A stretch of DNA of 64,000 nt from Watersipora subatra (GCF_963576615.1 NC_088716.1:43495910-43559909), one strand, 5' to 3'. Positions 54,135 to 63,045 are shown, numbered from the stretch's first letter. Notes: generated by a model not told the origin, from the letters alone. Translations and numbers: made by a program.

Positions 54135-56452
54135 TTCTCCTAGCATGCTCTTACATGTATATATATGTTCTCCTAGCATGCTCTTACATGTATATATATG
54201 TTCTGCTAGCCTGCACTTACATGTATATATATGTTCTGCTAGCCTGCACTTACGTGTATATGTTCTGCTAGCATGCTCTTACATGTATATATATGTTCTG
54301 CTAGCATGCTCTTACATGTATATATATATGTTCTGCTAGCATGCTCTTACATGTATATATATGTTCTGCTAGCATGCTCTTACATGTATATATATATGTT
54401 CTGCTAGCATGCTCTTACATGTATATATATGTTCTGCTAGCATGCCCTTACATGTATATATATGTTCTGCTAGCATGCTCTTACATGTATATATATGTTC
54501 TGCTAGCATGCTCTTACATGTATATATATGTTCTGCTAGCATGCTCTTACATTTATATATATGTTCTGCTACCATGCTCTTACGTGTATATATATGTTCT
54601 GCTAGCATGCTCTTACATGTATATATATGTTCTGCTAGCATGCTCTTACATGTATATATATATGTTCTGCTAGCATGCTCTTACATGTATATATATGTTC
54701 TGCTAGCATGCTCTTACATGTATATATATATATGTTCTGCTAGCATGCTCTTACATGTATATATACGTTCTGCTAGCATGCTCTTACATGTATATATATG
54801 TTCTGCTAGCATGCTCTTACATGTATATATATGTTCTGCTAGCATGCTCTTACATGTATATATATATGTTCTGCTAGCATGCTCTTACATGTATATATAT
54901 GTTCTGCTACCATGCTCTTACATGTATATATATGTTCTGCTAGCATGCTCTTACATGTATATATATGTTCTGCTAGCATGCTCTTACATGTATATATATA
55001 TGTTCTGCTAGCATGCACTTACATGTATATATATATGTTCTGCTAGCATGCACTTACATGTATATATATGTTCTGCTGGCCTGCACTTACATGTATATAT
55101 ATGTTCTGCTAGCATGCTCTTACATGTATATATATGTTCTGCTAGCCTGCACTTACATGTATATATATGTTCTGCTAGCATGCTCTTACATGTATAAATA
55201 TGTTCTGCTAGCCTGCACTTACATGTATATATATGTTCTGCTAGCCTGCACTTACATGTATATATATGTTCTGCTAGCCTGCACTTACATGTATATATAT
55301 GTTCTGCTAGCCTGCACTTACATGTATATATATGTTCTGCTAGCATGCTCTTACATGTATATATATGTTCTCCTAGCATGCTCTTACATGTATATATATG
55401 TTCAGCTAGCATGCTCTTACATTTATATATATGTTCTGCTAGCATGCTCTTACATGTATATCTATGTTCTGCTAGCCTGCACTTACATGTATATATATGT
55501 TTTGCTAGCCTGCACTTACATGTATATATATGTTCTTCTAGCATGCTCTTACATGTATATATATGTTCTGCTAGCATGCTCTTACATGTATATATATGTT
55601 CTGCTAGCCTGCACTTACATGTATATATATGTTCTGCTAGCATGCTCTTATATGTATATATACGTTCTGCTAGCATGCACTTACATGTATATATATTTTC
55701 TGCTAGCATGCTCTTACATGTATATATACGTTCGGCTAACATGCTCTTACATGTATATATATGTTCTGCTAGCATGCTCTTACATGTATATATATGTTCT
55801 GCTAGCATGCTCTTACATGTATATATATGTTCTGCTAGCATGCTCTTACATGTATATATATGTTCTGCTAGCCTGCACTTACATGTATATATATGTTCAG
55901 CTAGCATGCTCTTACATGTATATATATGTTCTGCTAGCATGCTCTTACATGTATATATATGTTCTGCTAGCATGCTCTTACATTTATATATATGTTCTGC
56001 TAGCATGCTCTTACATGTATATATACGTTCGGCTAACATGCTCTTACATGTATATATATGTTCTGCTAGCATGCTCTTACATGTATATATATGTTCTGCT
56101 AGCATGCTCTTACATGTATATATATGTTCTGCTAGCATGCTCTTACATGTATATATATGTTCTGCTAGCCTGCACTTACATGTATATATATGTTCAGCTA
56201 GCATGCTCTTACATGTATATATATGTTCTGCTAGCATGCTCTTACATGTATATATATGTTCTGCTAGCATGCTCTTACATTTATATATATGTTCTGCTAG
56301 CATGCTCTTACATGTATATATATGTTCTCCTAGCATGCTCTTACGTGTATATATATGTTCTGCTAGCATGCTCTTACATGTATATCTATGTTCAGCTAGC
56401 ATGCTCTTACATTTATATATATGTTCTGCTAGCATGCACTTACATGTATATA
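54135..56452. repeat. 2.3 kb minisatellite of 33-35-bp units (gttctgctagcatgctcttacatgtatatatat, with variants cctgcacttac/tcctag), about 68 copies.
   Basis: Direct periodicity. The 33-bp unit has no stop codons in several frames, which creates the long artefactual ORFs 55008..56435 (-), 55013..56470 (+), 55345..56463 (+) and 54409..55011 (+). Confidence 0.95.
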
Positions 56453-56734
56453 CAGTGGTGTGAAAAATAAATGGACCACCTTATAAAACTTGGTCATTGC
56501 TAGCGCTCAGCACTCAAGGTGATTAAATCCCTCATTAAGCTCTTGTTATTGAGTAGAACCTATACATAGTATACATCAAAAGAAAGCTTAGAATGAGTAG
56601 AACTTGATGAAACTAATTTTAGCTTGAAACAACAATGTTAGATAAGTTTTAGAGAGAGTCAAAGTTAGCAATTATTTTTGGCATTTCCACTCATTTTGAA
56701 TAAAATTAAACCTTTATTTTATTTATGTTCAAAC

Positions 56735-57245
56735 TCAAAGCAGTGATGGTACTCAGATCAAAGACGTTGTGTGAAACGATCTTCACGTCGTTATGTTGTG
56801 TACAACAGAATAGTTTTCTTTGAAGTTGCTAACTTGCTATAAAAGTGAACTTCTAGCGTTGGTAGATTAATTCAGTGAAATCATTCAGTCATTTTTCCGT
56901 CCTCTACCCTTTCTTTCCTGTAAGTCACCTTGCTCACCAAACCGTTTGATGGTGTTACAAACAGTACTTTTAGCAACCTTTACTTCTTTGGTAATCTCCC
57001 GCTGTGATTTGCCTTCCTGGTAAAGGTGTACGATGACTGCTCGCTTTGCTTCTGTAAGATGACGAGGCATGATGTCGATGTTTGACTGAATGAATCTACC
57101 AACGCTAGAAGTTCACTTTTATAGCAAGTTAGCAACTTCAAAGACAAATTATTCTGTTGTGCAAAACGTAACGACATGAGGATTGTTTAACGCAACGTCT
57201 TTGATGTGAGTACCATCACTGCTCTAGTTGAACGAAGTTGAACAA
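56735..57245 (-). mobile_element. Internally deleted Tc1/mariner relic: ~140-bp TIRs flank a 61-aa remnant of the transposase N-terminal paired-like HTH.
   Basis: ORF 56885..57070 (-) is MPRHLTEAKRAVIVHLYQEGKSQREITKEVKVAKSTVCNTIKRFGEQGDLQERKGRGRKND, the classic Tc1 N-terminus. 56750-56880 is the reverse complement of 57070-57225 ('cagtgatggtactcagatcaaagacgttg'). No DDE domain remains. Confidence 0.7.
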
Positions 57246-57264
57246 AAAAGCAATGAGAGGTATT

Positions 57265-57580
57265 CCAAAAAGGAAGGGAAAATAAATGTTCCTGAAAAGA
57301 AAGGAAAATAGATGTTCCGAAAAGGGAAGATAGATGTTCCTAAAAGGAAGGGAAGATAGATTTTATTAAAAAGAAGGGAAGATAGATGTTTCTAAAAGGA
57401 AGGAAAGCTAGATGTTACTGAAATAAAGGGAAGATAGATGTACCTAACAGGAAGAAAAAATAGAAGTTCCAAAAAGGAAGGAAATATAGATGTTCCAAAA
57501 AGGAAGGAAATATAGATGTTCCAAAAAGGAAGGAAATATAGATGTTCCAAAAAGGAAGGAAATATAGATGTTTCTATTAA
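57265..57580. repeat. 26-bp tandem repeat (gatgttccaaaaaggaaggaaatata), about 12 copies with variants.
   Basis: Direct periodicity. Followed at 57600-57700 by 5 copies of an 11-bp 'tcgagctctca' repeat. Confidence 0.85.
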
Positions 57581-57949
57581 TGAAAGAAAAAATGTAACTT
57601 GAACTTACCGTCTAAAGCCATGCAATATATCGAGCTCTCAATCGAGCTCTCACTCGAGCTCTCACTCGAGCTCTCAATCGAGCTCTCACTTAAGCCTGAA
57701 ATACAAATAACAACATGGATATGCAAGTATTAGTCTATAAATTTCTCAATCGCAAAAGTCTAGTTAGGCTTTGCCTGACAGAGTACAGCGTAATCTGTAT
57801 GAGTTGATTTGATAGCGGCAGCAATTTAAAGTTAGATTATCTTCCTGTAACAAAAAGTGACATATTTTGGAAATTGTCTTCCAATCTGCTGTGCACAGGT
57901 CAGGCACTCTCAATTGTTGAAGCATGGCTGCTCATCTATGTATAGTATA

Positions 57950-58127
57950 TATATATATACATATATGTTTATATATATGAACATATGTTTATATATATAT
58001 ACATATATATGTTTATATATATACATATATGTTTATATATATACATATATGTTTATATATATACATATATGTTTATATATACATATATATATATATATTA
58101 TATATATATATATTTATATATATATAT

Positions 58128-58159
<32 letters not shown>

Positions 58160-58170
58160 CACATACAGGA
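57950..58170. repeat. TA-rich microsatellite (tatatatacatatatgtt-type units).
   Basis: Direct inspection. Produces the artefactual ORFs 57857..58212. Confidence 0.9.
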
Positions 58171-58240
58171 CAGATAGCGCAGTTGGTGAGGTATCGGGAC
58201 CGTGATCATTAGGTCCTCGGTTCAAACCCCAACAACTGCA
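58165..58240 (+). other. tRNA-like segment (gatagcgcagttggtgaggtatcgggaccgtgatcattaggtcctcggttcaaacccc), followed by nested palindromes.
   Basis: It has A-box-like 'tagcgcagttggt' and B-box-like 'ggttcaaaccc', but no acceptor stem. It is followed at 58245-58310 by the hairpins 'ctgtagctgaa..ttcagctacag' and 'cagctacaggcagc..gctgcctgtagctg'. Confidence 0.4.
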
Positions 58241-59448
58241 CTTTTCTGTAGCTGAACTGCACGTTTCAGCTACAGGCAGCTAAGCGCTGCCTGTAGCTGA
58301 ACCAGGACAAGGCAGTGAAAAATGGGTTACTGGTTCAAAACGGATGAAATGGACTCAGACTGATAACACGGTCCTCATGCAGTGCTACTTTATGAGTGAA
58401 CTTCAAAAGTGGGGCTACATGGGAAGGATGCGTCAACTGTGGATAAACATGCGCCCTGAAATTGCCACTAACCGCTAAGCAACTTGTAGCTCAGAGGAGT
58501 AACATGATCAAGCGGTACCTCATATCGGAACTTGAGGTAGATGAAATTAGAGAACAATTCACCCAAGTAACCTCAACCAACAAAAAGTGCATGTCAACAC
58601 ACACTGTCACACATACACGATCATGTGTTGACTCACAGGTTGAAGGAGACATGCCTCAACTCACCCTTGGGTCAAGGGTGAGTTGAGGCATGTCTCCTTC
58701 AACCTGTGAGTCAACACAGGTTGAAGGAGTTGTTGATGATATTTTCCGCAAGCTCTCTCACCCTTGGGTCAAGGGTGAGAGAGCTTGCGGAAAATATCAT
58801 CAACAACATGTCAGCTGCTAATGATTATGGAAGCAGGGTACCACTACGAAGAGTTAGCAAGGCCATACCTAAGAAGCTGTTAGAAGACATTAACTTGGCA
58901 CTGAAGTTGATCTCAACTGAATCGATCAGTGAGACTAATGCCTTAATCTACAGTACAGCAACCATCATCTTGGAGGAGATGGATATTAAGCCACTGCCAA
59001 CAAGGCAGTTCCATCCTGGCAGCTGAGGCTACAAAATAAGATCAAGCACTTGCGCAAGAAAGTTAGTAGGCTCAGTGAGAGATCTAACCACAGTTTGAAG
59101 CGTCCAAAAAGGGAAGCCACAGAAGAAGCTCTAGAATCTGCCAAACAGCAGCTAGTAGCACTCTCGGCACGACTGAAGCGGTACACCAAAGAGCGGGATA
59201 ACAAGAGAATGAACAAACTGTTCATCAAAAATTCGTCTAGAGTGTATTCCCAGTTCAAAGGTGAACTGCAGAGGCCAATGTCTGAGCCTCTCCGATCAAA
59301 GTTCAAACTTCAAATTTCTGGAAGGACATCTGGGAGAAAGAGACTACTCATAACACCACTGCAAACTGGCTGAAGAGGCTTAAAGAGAGCCATCAACACA
59401 CTGTGGCTCAGCAAGGACTCACCATCAGCAAATAGCATCAAGTGCAGA

Positions 59449-60567
59449 GTGCAGCGTATGAAGAACTGGGCAGCACCTGGCCATGACATGATTCAAGCCT
59501 TCTGGTTGAAGAAATTGACATCACTTCACACTAGAATGGCTAAGCAGATGGAATGCCTAATAAAACAAGGTGACCATCCAGAATGGCTGACCAAAGGACG
59601 AACTGTACTTCTGATAAAAGATCCAAAGCAGGGGCCAATTCCCAAAAACTATCGACCAATAACGTGCTTGCCCACCACTTGGAAACTGCTCTCCGGAATA
59701 GTTGCAGACAAACTGGAAGAGCACATGAGTCACTATATGACCATCGCTCAGAAAGGAATTGGGCGCAACACCCGAGGAGCCAAACATCAGTTACTGGTGG
59801 ATCGGACGATCTGTCAAGACAGCAGGAAAAGGCAAACCAATCTTGCCATGGCTTGCATTGACTACAAAAAGGTCTATGACTCAATTCCCCATAGTTGGAT
59901 ACTTGAGTGCCTCAGTATGTACAATGTTCACCCTGCTCTTGTGGCATTCATCAAGATGTCAATGACCAAATGGAAGATGGAACTGGAGGCTAATGGCAAA
60001 AAGCTGGCGAGTGTCAAAATTAAGCGAGGCATCTATCAATGTGACTCCTTATCACCGCTGCTCTTCTGCATATGCCTAAACCCTCTAAGCAATATGCTGG
60101 AGGAGACTCAATATGGGTACCAGTTTAAGAATGGCACCAAGATGAACCACCTCTTCTACATGGATGACATCAAGCTGTACGCTAACAAAGAAAGGGACAT
60201 TGATTCGCTAATACACCTCACTCAGGTATACAGCAAGGACATCGGAATGACCTTCGGTATTGAGAAATGTGGAAGGCTAACTCTTAAGAAAGGCCATTCT
60301 ATGTTCACAGATGGCCTAAGAATGCCAAATGGTACCATCAAAGATATAGAAGAAGGGTACAAGTACTTGGGGATTATGCAAAGCAACATCAACCACGAAG
60401 CCAAGGTACGTCACAAAGCCATTACAGAATACAAGAAACGCCTTCGGCAGGTCCTACGGAGCCAGCTCAATGCCAAGAACCAAGTCATGGCAATAAATAC
60501 CTACGCACTGCCAGTAATAAGATATCCATCAGGCATAATAAAGTGGACTGAGGAAGCCATCAAATAA
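59449..60567 (+). CDS. Reverse transcriptase domain of the LINE.
   Basis: PGHDMI, ITCLPTTWKLLSGIVADKL, IDYKKVYDSIPHSW, QCDSLSPLLF and FYMDDIKLYA correspond to RT motifs 0-5. The 'M' at 59449 is internal to the element ORF. Confidence 0.7.
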   Translation: MQRMKNWAAPGHDMIQAFWLKKLTSLHTRMAKQMECLIKQGDHPEWLTKGRTVLLIKDPKQGPIPKNYRPITCLPTTWKLLSGIVADKLEEHMSHYMTIAQKGIGRNTRGAKHQLLVDRTICQDSRKRQTNLAMACIDYKKVYDSIPHSWILECLSMYNVHPALVAFIKMSMTKWKMELEANGKKLASVKIKRGIYQCDSLSPLLFCICLNPLSNMLEETQYGYQFKNGTKMNHLFYMDDIKLYANKERDIDSLIHLTQVYSKDIGMTFGIEKCGRLTLKKGHSMFTDGLRMPNGTIKDIEEGYKYLGIMQSNINHEAKVRHKAITEYKKRLRQVLRSQLNAKNQVMAINTYALPVIRYPSGIIKWTEEAIK

Positions 60568-60733
60568 ACAGATATAGCAACTCGTAAACTGCTGACCATG
60601 CATGGAGCACTCCACCAAAAATCTGACACTACTAGATTGTATCTTAATAGGAAAGATGGCGGTAGGGGATTCAAAAGTGTACAGCAGACAGTGAAAGAAG
60701 AGGAGCAAAGCATCAAAAGCATATGCAGCCTCC

Positions 60734-61585
60734 ATGGCCATTTCAGATAAGTTGCTAGCTGAATTTCAATCGGCTGCTCTTACAACGGACCTACGCCCTG
60801 ATGATGAGGAAATTGACTGGCACGCGAAACCTCTTCATGGTGGTTACCACCAACAAATATCTAAGGTTGGCGATCTTCACCAGACATATATGTGGCTGAA
60901 CAAAGGACACTTAACGGCCAATACAGAGTCGCTAATCATGGCAGCCCAGGAGCAAGTGCTCCCAACAAGGCAATTCCAAACAAAAATCTATCACACTAGG
61001 GACGATCCTAGATGCAGACTGTGCAAAGATGCGCCTGAGACCATTCAACACATCATCAGTGGATGCAAGCAGCTAGCAGGAAACGCATACACTGAGCGGC
61101 ATAATCATGTCGCAGGTGTTGTGTATAGAAGTCTATGTGATGAGTATGGCCTTAATAAACCACAACACCTGTGGGAAGCTCCTGGTAAGGTCAATAAAAA
61201 TGACCGCGCTAAGATCCTCTGGGACTTCTACATCCGAACTGACAAGCATGTCCTAGCAAACCAACCAGATATAGTGGTGGTAGACAAGAAAAACGAAAGG
61301 GCTACTTTAATAGATATAGCAGTACCCAATGACTACAATATAGCCAGCAAAGAAAAAGAAAAGGTAGAGAAATATCTCCCTCTTGGAGAAGAAATTGAAA
61401 AATGCTGGAATGTAAGAACAACTGTAATACCAGTAGTCATTGGGGCATTGGGCGCAATAACACCGGCGCATAAAATGTGGCTTGCCCAAATACCAACAAA
61501 AATCAACTCAGGTGAGTTGCAGAAAAGTGCGCTATTGGGAACAGCTAAGATCTTGAGGCGAGCGCTCAAACTCCCAGGTCTCTGA
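60734..61585 (+). CDS. C-terminal CCHC zinc-finger plus restriction-enzyme-like endonuclease (RLE) domain of the LINE. It is frameshifted relative to the RT.
   Basis: C-x2-C-x8-H-x4-C followed by RHNHV, then (Q)PDIVVVDKK...ATLIDIAVP...KEKEKVEKY, as in R2/R4/NeSL/HERO endonucleases. It lies +1/-1 out of frame from the RT ORF, which ends at 60567. Confidence 0.65.
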   Translation: MAISDKLLAEFQSAALTTDLRPDDEEIDWHAKPLHGGYHQQISKVGDLHQTYMWLNKGHLTANTESLIMAAQEQVLPTRQFQTKIYHTRDDPRCRLCKDAPETIQHIISGCKQLAGNAYTERHNHVAGVVYRSLCDEYGLNKPQHLWEAPGKVNKNDRAKILWDFYIRTDKHVLANQPDIVVVDKKNERATLIDIAVPNDYNIASKEKEKVEKYLPLGEEIEKCWNVRTTVIPVVIGALGAITPAHKMWLAQIPTKINSGELQKSALLGTAKILRRALKLPGL

Positions 61586-62056
61586 TAGGAGACCCGAATT
61601 GCAGCAGAAATTACCACCCATACGGGGTATCCGAGGTGAGGAAACAGTTTTTATATATATATATATATATATATAATCAATAAAACAGACTATAACTTTA
61701 GATAAAACACTTTATTACTATTAGTTCCATGCTTGGTAAAAGCAATCTTCAGATAAATGTCAGCACCAGTTTTGGTTACTTATATACAGCTAGAACTATT
61801 AAAATTACTAAAGGTTTATAGCTGGAAGGTTATGGATTCATAGAAGCATTAGGTTTTAAAGTTGGACAGTGGAAACTTGCTAGCATGTCTGCAGGCGCTG
61901 ACGAGTTCAGTGCGTATGTTTAATGAACTAAGGTGTGGCCTGTATATAATATATAAATTTTCTTGTAGACACAAAGTACAGTTTTAGAGCCATTGGCCAG
62001 CGGCATGGACTGCTCCAGTATTCTCCAGTTGATGGAATAGTTAGTGTTTGAATCCT

Positions 62057-62739: not shown

Positions 62740-63045
62740 AGTTAACTATTTCTGTATGTTTTCTGTATCTGCATGTATGTCTGTACCTACATGTATTTTT
62801 GTACCTACATGTATTTCTGAACCTATGTGTAATTTTGTACCTAAACGTATTTCCGTAACTATGAATATATCTGTTATACGCATAGGTACAGATATACGTT
62901 TGATCCTCTTTTCCAACTCGTATTTTTGTACCTACATTTATTTCTGTACCTGCATTTATTTCTGTACCTGCATATATTTCTGCACCTGCATATATGTCTG
63001 TACCTGCATATATGTCTGACGAACCTCTACTGTTGTTTCTATACA
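62740..63045. repeat. ~18-19-bp minisatellite (tctgtacctgcatatatt variants) arranged around a palindromic centre.
   Basis: The arms 'tgtacctacatgtat...' surround the palindrome 'gtaactatgaatatatctgttatacgcataggtacagatatacgtt'. Produces the artefactual ORFs 62711..63046 (-) and 62756..63019 (+). Confidence 0.85.

Follow-up and report, generated by a model that had tools for sequence, protein, structure and literature searches.

A microsatellite-inserted LINE of the R2 superfamily with a tRNA-derived 5′ head and a candidate RNA polymerase III transcription unit in Watersipora subatra

How could a retrotransposon that inserts into promoter-less microsatellite DNA give rise to a full-length RNA of its own? 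This question is raised by a locus in the bryozoan Watersipora subatra (GCF_963576615.1, NC_088716.1:43495910-43559909), a stretch of 64,000 nucleotides (nt) that is referred to here as the window and numbered from its first letter. Positions 58166-61675 on the plus strand contain one full-length, dead long interspersed nuclear element (LINE) of the R2 superfamily with one open reading frame (ORF), which encodes a reverse transcriptase (RT), a CCHC zinc knuckle and a restriction-like endonuclease (RLE) (Table 1). Its first bases form a tRNA-related head with the A and B boxes that short interspersed nuclear elements (SINEs) typically have. The core description, a microsatellite-targeting RLE LINE of which the head is an integral part, is held with high confidence. 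The whole package, in which RNA polymerase III (Pol III) transcription is added to this core, is modestly favored.

Despite its decay, the coding region of the element can be aligned to R2 proteins of known structure. In a PDB search with the single sequence, R2 proteins rank first (9nl2, E=1.6e-27), before L1 ORF2p, and the alignment includes the CCHC-RHN segment; a profile built from 20 homologs finds 9nl3 at E=5.5e-55. With this profile, the CRLC..HIISGC, RH(N/D), PD, D and K positions fall column-for-column on those of R2 (9nl3 residues 909-1136). The individual endonuclease motifs lie at 61262-61285 (QPDIVVVD), 61307-61327 (LIDIAVP) and 61361-61375 (KVEKY). The ORF at 60734-61585 also has a weak Pfam match to zf-RVT, and no Pfam match to an endonuclease/exonuclease/phosphatase-type (apurinic/apyrimidinic endonuclease, APE) domain is found in the 20 homologs. 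A total of 1,902 protein homologs were found. The closest intact relative is P0001, a protein of 1088 amino acids (aa) with 75% amino-acid identity that is encoded on metagenome contig L001, and the nearest named protein is P0023 from W. subatra itself (78% identity over 61% of the query). The RT/RLE ORF is intact in P0001, P0003, P0007 and others. A first-pass annotation of the window had assigned the locus to the RLE-bearing R2 superfamily on the strength of its nuclease motifs and had placed it between TA repeats. Every motif that it quoted is present, the alignment to solved R2 proteins agrees with the assignment, and Tandem Repeats Finder (TRF) places arrays on both sides of the element, a layout that is repeated in independent relatives. 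Because the order of head, body, T-run and microsatellite recurs in this way, a chance arrangement is unlikely. Within the window, blastn, tblastn and head-profile nhmmer searches for further copies or SINE-like partners returned only the element and unrelated TA repeats.

Within the R2 superfamily, the R4/Dong clade is favored for this element, although indirectly and by inference. Members of that clade insert into ribosomal DNA (rDNA) or microsatellites, have no N-terminal zinc fingers and are known from Oryzias; the hallmark of Dong is insertion into (TAA)n (PMC7998251). The placement is favored because many homologs (45% identity, 99% of the query covered) come from Anolis, for which the LINE clades listed are L1, L2, CR1, RTE and R4, with no other RLE clade and without HERO (PMC5389967, PMC5753468), and because the element inserts into a specific microsatellite and gives no Pfam match to N-terminal zinc fingers in the window protein or 20 homologs. 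R4/Dong proteins also have a diverged N-terminal Myb/SANT-like domain, the published detection of which needed HHpred (PMC7998251). In the proteins studied here, a W..L..CY..GY..RM..W motif is conserved, and Pfam reports no Myb/SANT domain. The hallmarks of the R2 clade proper are not seen: the flanks are microsatellite rather than 28S sequence, Pfam finds neither a zinc finger nor a Myb domain, and there is no Rfam match to a ribozyme of the hepatitis delta virus (HDV) type (E<=10, 57600-62000). Membership in a HERO or NeSL/Togen-like clade in place of R4/Dong is unlikely. Such a placement could account for the target, since some HERO families target microsatellites and the Togen elements of fish target (TG)n (PMC4640811), but it does not fit with the abundance of close homologs in Anolis, whose listed clades include R4 and not HERO, with the relatives of ~40% identity that are (TAA)n-specific like Dong, with the report of R4/Dong-like elements from Oryzias, or with the failure to find N-terminal zinc fingers.

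Compared over its full length with teleost elements (P0005, P0006, P0012), the element protein reaches 60-62% identity, and single clusters at 90% identity span distant fishes (Oryzias/Betta/Mugilogobius in one, Xiphophorus/Syngnathus/Austrofundulus in another). This distribution is suggestive of horizontal transfer among aquatic animals.

The head is found at the exact 5′ end of the element. The alignment between the window and L001 begins at an identical base (CAGGMAGRATRGCGCAGTTGG) while the flanks upstream are unrelated, and the head thus belongs to the element. As judged by this comparison, the head is a conserved 5′ module of the element itself, neither a private capture nor part of the target. 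At least 11 lineages carry heads that have both an A box and a B box; those of the same type are found at a locus on a fish chromosome (L096) and in the P0007 family (L083-L090), P0003 (L082), P0011/P0016/P0013 (L091-L095), L002, L006, L099 and L100. The boxes were located as a TRGCNNAGTGG-like A box and a GGTTCGANNCC-like B box that are 30-60 nt apart near the 5′ end. In the relatives, the A box, where located, is at +9 to +11 and the B box at +52 to +67, and the heads often have a CCTGGRCAAG-type motif further downstream. The window and its relatives thus share the box arrangement of a type-2 Pol III promoter, and the position of the A box fits a Pol III start that would be expected at the first bases of the element. 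The P0007 family, which is young because its 1090-aa ORF is identical across eight contigs (L083-L090), shows how sharply this end is defined: four of its copies have a 5′ terminus that is common to within ~3 nt.

Although related to tRNA, the head is not a tRNA. ARAGORN calls no tRNA in the window or in ~70 loci except L099 (L099:23-115, tRNA-Leu-like). Rfam gives no tRNA match in the window at E<=10 and none in the relatives at or above the gathering score, with L001 the best at 18.1 bits. No cloverleaf is seen in eight minimum-energy folds, that of the window among them (z-scores of -4.1 to +1.7), and direct reading of the heads finds the acceptor and T stems mismatched. What is conserved in the heads, as far as these comparisons reach, is the sequence of the A and B promoter boxes and not pairing. 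The earlier description of a tRNA-like segment at 58165-58240 is therefore kept for a tRNA-related sequence with A and B boxes and given up for a tRNA as such (ARAGORN, Rfam, fold). The further suggestion that this copy had captured a SINE-like tRNA head is withdrawn, as the head has a homolog in L001 and is present in at least 11 lineages. A tRNA gene that served as the insertion target was also considered and rejected: the head is preceded by microsatellite and not by unique DNA, and it diverges along with the ORF. Most likely, the head acts as a promoter of the SINE type.

Other features of the 5′ ends vary among relatives. The A-rich linker between the B box and the CCTGGRCAAG motif differs in length among copies that encode identical proteins (5′ untranslated regions (UTRs) of L083-L088 and L092-L094). 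A different 5′ terminus, AGCGCCAGTGGTGG...ATCGGCTTGGTGCCCGACGCTTCACTGGACC, with no Rfam match, is shared by (AAT)n relatives without a tRNA-type head (L003:76-150, L005:55-120, L028:~440-505), and yet another head type is found in L008, L018 and L098.

The body behind the head is almost free of Pol III terminators, which were counted as runs of four or more T (T4+) on the sense strand. In a permutation of synonymous codons, by which both the protein sequence and the codon usage are kept, the ORFs of 11 lineages with a head or a terminal T-run contain 1 T4+ run where 16.7 are expected; in contrast, the ORFs of eight relatives with other 5′ heads contain 57 against 60.3 expected. Dinucleotide shuffles give the same picture. 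For the T4-free clades, represented by 23 loci without redundancy (53.8 kb), 2 runs are observed versus 21.8 expected, whereas the other 62 loci have 398 versus 363.5. The depletion is specific to the sense strand, because the deficit of A4+ runs, the antisense counterpart, is slight in these 23 loci (416 versus 502). In five relatives (L096, L091, L092, L093 and L006), the first T4+ run past the 5′ end is the terminal T-run, which lies 3450-3571 nt downstream. The decayed window copy still follows the pattern, with a T4 at +77, a T4 at +577 that was made by a palindromic insertion, and the terminal T5 at +3483. Two lineages that were retrieved after the hypothesis had been formed, L099 and L100, both combine a B-box head with a T4-free ORF.

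The T4-T5 run that follows the B box by 13-30 nt is found in the window (58242-58245), L001 (141-145), L083 of the P0007 family (~127-131) and L100 (46-49). It sits where a tRNA gene has its own terminator, and might attenuate transcription and at the same time give rise to a small RNA from the head.

Two explanations of the head do without a Pol III promoter. The first is that the head is an RNA processing signal, a tRNA-like fold within a read-through transcript that is cut by RNase P or RNase Z and so sets the 5′ end, as a functional analog of the HDV-like ribozyme that R2 carries at its 5′ end. This explanation is judged quite improbable. It would fit with the location of the head exactly at the 5′ end beside a microsatellite that offers no promoter, and with the dependence of R2-superfamily elements on co-transcription and 5′ processing (PMC3774820). 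It can also draw on the tRNA-Leu-like call by ARAGORN in L099 and on the 18 bits of L001 with the Rfam tRNA model. These isolated calls stand against none of eight minimum-energy folds with a cloverleaf, negative ARAGORN results in the window and ~70 loci, and Rfam matches that are absent or below gathering. The stems are mismatched, and it is the sequence of the A and B boxes rather than pairing that has been kept. In addition, cleavage of a read-through transcript would leave both the strand-specific depletion of T4 and the terminal T-run unexplained.

The second explanation, which is very unlikely, holds that the head has no function: a tRNA or SINE RNA was template-switched onto the 5′ end and has been passively inherited, and the lack of TTTT reflects a T-poor sense strand. 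For other LINEs, it is well documented that the RT can switch templates to a small RNA at the 5′ end. The great differences between the heads of different lineages fit repeated captures, and the modularity of SINEs has been reviewed (PMC5786205). The T content of the head-bearing lineages is indeed low (0.16-0.20). Passive inheritance, however, does not explain why lineages with only 40-75% amino-acid identity have kept both the A and B boxes and the distance between them, and a T-poor strand does not explain a T4 depletion that survives nulls in which either the dinucleotides or the amino acids and codon usage are preserved. The association of the head with a T4-free body was also confirmed prospectively in L099 and L100. 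A promoter that acts from within the element remains the preferred reading of the head.

The repeats at the two ends of the element identify its target. The TA-rich array at 57937-58159 is presumed to be the 5′ remainder of a (TA)n target. Repeats of (TA)n, (ACT)n or (AAT)n lie on both sides of the element in more than 15 related loci as well as in the window. Of the seven independent 5′ junctions known for the (TA)n sub-lineage, five adjoin (TA)n: those of the window, L096, L083, L086 and L084 (L088 holds the same insertion). The fish chromosome locus L096 has (TA)~30 upstream and (TA)~16 downstream, and in both the window and L096, which are chromosome-scale or long contexts, unique DNA lies beyond the repeat. 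Every 3′ end of this group consists of a T-run, then (TA)n of variable length, then unrelated DNA. In the sister group, (ACT)n lies on both sides in L091-L095 and the long-read contig L097, with (ACT)n upstream and a T8-T17 run followed by (CTA)n downstream; L097 holds a 5′-truncated copy within (ACT)~60 on 53 kb. Relatives of ~40% identity (L002, L003, L005, L006, L008, L098 and L099) have (AAT)n on both sides, and in the sister lineages the 5′ repeat unit always equals the 3′ unit. These junctions support insertion of the window lineage into (TA)n and of its sisters into (ACT)n or (AAT)n, and they show that the repeat-unit specificity has shifted within the group. A microsatellite-targeting lineage had been offered by the first-pass annotation, with the insertion sites of other copies as the means of checking it, and the sites of both the (TA)n group and its sisters bear this out.

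It is highly improbable that the (TA)n is instead a 3′ tail that the element makes by RT slippage, with the upstream TA a coincidence or the tail of a neighboring copy and no target specificity: many LINEs end in simple repeats, the 5′ junctions of L001 and L085 are without (TA)n, the tail of L003 is followed by another head (so that tandem copies or assembly loops occur), and (TA)n is self-complementary and gives fold-back assemblies (L089), but such a tail does not account for five of seven (TA)n-group 5′ junctions on (TA)n, with unique DNA beyond in the window and L096, for the agreement between the 5′ and 3′ units of the sisters ((ACT)n with (CTA)n, (AAT)n with (AAT)n), or for a 5′-truncated L097 copy that is still inside (ACT)~60.

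Two junctions in the P0007 family have unusual structures. At L085:40-75, a palindromic 5′ junction (AAACCCGCACCCGC|GGGTGCG..) takes the place of (TA)n, and in L089 a fold-back at the 3′ end leads through (TA)n to a 3′ UTR copy in inverted orientation. Both are either real inverted insertions or assembly artefacts from the self-complementary repeat.

The 3′ end of the element carries a conserved two-tier stem-loop that spans the stop codon. In the alignment of 10 relatives, 93% of the cells in this structure are paired and six pairs have changed on both sides. Its covariation score is 0.35 versus 0.225 in shuffles, with none of 500 shuffles reaching 0.35, and in controls with slid partners the pairing falls to 25-50%. 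The analogy with R2 and stringent-type LINEs makes it likely that the RT recognizes the RNA through this region. A second hairpin in the 3′ UTR, compared by eye, shows a compensatory change from CACCC/GGGTG in L096, L091 and L092 to CATCC/GGATG in the P0007 family. Beyond the hairpins, where the window copy has its terminal T5, every (TA)n and (ACT)n relative has a homologous run of T4-T17.

From these features, a life cycle can be proposed. The A and B boxes of the head would act as an internal Pol III promoter of the SINE type, with the start at the first bases of the element; transcription would proceed through the TTTT-free body and end either at the terminal T-run or within the flank. The uncapped RNA would be both mRNA and template. 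Its translation would not be new for the superfamily, because R2 RNA is freed from a Pol I co-transcript by a ribozyme. As in the biology of R2 and stringent-type LINEs, the protein would bind the conserved stem-loop across its own stop codon. The endonuclease would then nick the repeat, and the nicked repeat would prime reverse transcription from the RNA's 3′ end, by which repeat DNA would be left on both sides of the new copy. In such a cycle, the TTTT-free body would let a full-length RNA arise inside promoter-less microsatellites. That an autonomous LINE is transcribed in this manner from a SINE-type Pol III promoter is a serious possibility, held just short of being favored. More tentative still is the broader proposal of a widespread animal lineage, in teleosts and marine invertebrates, of R4/Dong-like and microsatellite-specific LINEs that would be transcribed by Pol III, with a TTTT-free body of ~3.4 kb that may be upheld by selection at synonymous sites and often ends at a terminal T-run.

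Several points weigh against this proposal. The use of Pol III is read from sequence statistics, and ~3.5-kb protein-coding Pol III units are, to our knowledge, not established as a class. The T4-T5 run behind the head would stop much Pol III transcription, and read-through must be assumed. For the depletion of T4+ in head-bearing ORFs, the Poisson probability of ~1e-6, in which lineages are treated as independent, is overstated because, in a rough neighbor-joining tree without support values, the loci that lack T4 fall into no more than two or three clades and so provide few independent contrasts. The signals at the two ends are also uneven: the (ACT)n group has a degenerate B box (GGTTAGTACCC), the terminal T-run is missing from L002, L007 and L099, (AAT)n lineages among them, and two of the seven (TA)n-group 5′ junctions (L001 and L085) have no (TA)n. 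Finally, the R4/Dong placement is indirect, and the relatives (the L-numbered loci) are mostly short metagenome contigs.

Comparison with known systems shows which parts of the element are shared and which are its own. Like Dong of Bombyx mori and other R4-Dong elements, including those of the Rex6 type in fish, it has a single ORF in the order RT, CCHC and restriction-like endonuclease, without N-terminal zinc fingers, and inserts into a simple repeat, with relatives of ~40% identity flanked by (TAA)n as Dong is. In contrast to Dong, the window lineage is found in (TA)n and its sister in (ACT)n rather than (TAA)n, a T-run precedes the repeat, and the tRNA-derived A/B-box head is joined to a T4-free body. 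With R2 (9nl2, 9nl3, 9dou, 8gh6), it shares the RT/CCHC/RLE architecture and a sequence-specific target. By analogy, recognition of a structured 3′ UTR and an uncapped RNA with no Pol II promoter of its own are proposed as further similarities. Unlike R2, it has a microsatellite in place of 28S rDNA as its target, no N-terminal zinc finger or Myb domain by Pfam, and a tRNA-derived head where no match to an HDV-like ribozyme is found.

The head and 3′ end recall SINEs. In tRNA-derived SINEs (SINE2, and CORE-SINEs such as MIR), the 5′ end similarly lies ~10 nt before the A box with the B box 30-45 nt later. SINE2 elements are likewise tRNA-related without a conserved cloverleaf, avoid internal TTTT, and end in a LINE-type 3′ stem-loop and a simple repeat, and several relatives of the window element have a CCTTGGGCAAG-type motif after the head, as CORE-SINEs do. 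The window element differs in being 3.5 kb long and autonomous in design, with its own RT/RLE ORF, whereas SINEs are <700 bp, non-coding and dependent on a partner LINE. The head of L002 (L002:10-120) and the motif that follows it align over ~95 nt with a consensus of mammalian MIR (score 48, z=14), which is a lead and not a test; the window head has no significant similarity to this consensus (z=0.6). For UnaL2 of the eel, a stringent-type LINE, the 3′ stem-loop and terminal repeats are needed for retrotransposition. UnaL2 resembles the window family in the placement of a conserved 3′ stem-loop beside a terminal simple repeat, and covariation supports the stem in the window family. It differs as an APE-type element of the L2 clade without microsatellite specificity; in the window family, the stem overlaps the stop codon and the repeat is the target.

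LINEs are thought to use internal Pol II promoters and SINEs to use Pol III, and the rDNA-specific R2 and R4 are co-transcribed by Pol I and then processed by a ribozyme. Microsatellite-specific RLE LINEs as such are already known, as Dong (PMC7998251) and as some HERO families and Togen (PMC4640811). In the literature searched, no description was found of a tRNA-derived head or Pol III transcription of an autonomous LINE or of a terminator-free LINE body, and a prior one may exist, for example in Repbase Reports. If the Pol III proposal is correct, the division between LINE and SINE promoters would be blurred by a coding LINE that combines a SINE-type head and a terminal T-run with a body free of terminators. 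Such a LINE would show how an rDNA-dependent lineage could gain transcriptional self-sufficiency in promoter-less microsatellites. Such "SINE-headed LINEs" could also be a direct source of tRNA-derived SINEs by internal deletion of the ORF, possibly including SINEs with CORE-like bodies. Should the likeness of L002 to MIR hold against Dfam, the heads of CORE-SINEs would be linked to the 5′ ends of R4/Dong LINEs. In practical terms, the proposal points to compact, sequence-specific insertion systems driven by uncapped RNA and related to the R2 proteins that are engineered for gene insertion. Independent of Pol III, the comparisons delineate relatives of Dong that are specific for (TA)n or (ACT)n, together with a 3′ recognition stem-loop that has covariation support.

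Table 1 Features of the element and its surroundings (window coordinates)
Feature	Position	Strand	Basis or remark
Minisatellite, 26-bp unit, ~12.8 copies	57263-57590		
Minisatellite, 12-bp unit ATCGAGCTCTCA, 5 copies	57629-57688		
Compound TA-rich microsatellite directly 5′ of the element	57937..58159	.	TRF period 2, 112 copies, 79% matches
tRNA-derived head at the exact element 5′ end	58166..58245	+	Homology with L001 starts here; head-profile nhmmer E=7e-20
A box TAGCGCAGTTGG	58175-58186 (+10)	+	Motif placement
B box GGTTCAAACCC	58219-58229 (+54)	+	Motif placement; 32-nt gap after A box
TTTT following the B box	58242-58245	+	Motif placement
Rest of 5′ UTR	58246..58284	+	Alignments; ~76 nt deleted relative to L001, including the CCTGGACAAGG-type motif found in relatives
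Decayed single ORF, ~1,090 aa if intact	58285..61585	+	Three-frame translation; tblastn with reconstructed protein; 75% identity to P0001
N-terminal conserved alignment columns	58347..58442	+	Sequence-level resemblance only; no Pfam match
Two near-perfect palindromes, common center CTCACCCTTGGGTCAAGGGTGAG	58624-58718 and 58729-58807	.	Self-complementarity 97% and 96%
RT domain	59623..60375	+	Pfam RVT_1 E=5.3e-26, residues 59-309 of the 59449-60567 ORF; alignment to R2 RT
CCHC zinc knuckle	61013..61066	+	CRLCKDAPETIQHIISGC; aligned with R2 CCHC
RHNHV motif	61097..61111	+	Aligned with R2
Restriction-like endonuclease PD..D..K	61262..61375	+	Aligned with R2 RLE motifs
Conserved 3′ stem-loop across the stop codon	61565..61604	+	RNAalifold on 10 relatives; inner helix intact in window, outer partly decayed
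Second 3′ UTR hairpin, CCAYCC-loop-GGRTGAG type	61614..61641	+	Read by eye from aligned 3′ UTRs
Terminal T5, candidate Pol III terminator	61648..61652 (+3483)	+	Homologous run in relatives
(TA)12, tail or 3′ target remainder	61653..61675	.	TRF array at 61652-61675, 100% matches
Minisatellite, 18-bp unit, ~14.6 copies	62756-63018		

The window copy itself is degenerate. Its ORF contains several frameshifts and in-frame stops (for example at 58476 and 60565), and relative to L001 it has a palindromic insertion of ~150 nt as well as deletions in the 5′ UTR. The insertion consists of two adjacent palindromes of 95 and 79 nt that have one 23-nt palindromic center in common and are built from inverted copies of the flanking ORF sequence and a short forward fragment. 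It breaks the window ORF and is missing from the ORF of P0001, and its excision restores ..DMPQLTLGSRVRELAENIINN.. as in the intact relative. The palindromes are thus an inverted duplication, private to this copy, that was inserted around a part of the ORF which is palindromic by nature, and the pair looks like the product of zig-zag template switching at a hairpin-prone site. A microRNA identity for 58628-58806 was considered and rejected, as the matches are of the generic perfect-hairpin kind and far below gathering scores.

Outside the element and the tandem repeats listed in Table 1, two further coding signals were seen upstream. A short ORF on the minus strand at 56885-57070 encodes a helix-turn-helix domain of the Tc1/mariner type (Sleeping Beauty-like; HTH_23, E=7e-10) and is probably a transposase fragment. 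At 55008-56470, ORFs of ~480 aa are present on both strands; their Pfam matches are to low-complexity sequence only, and they probably reflect repetitive sequence rather than a gene.

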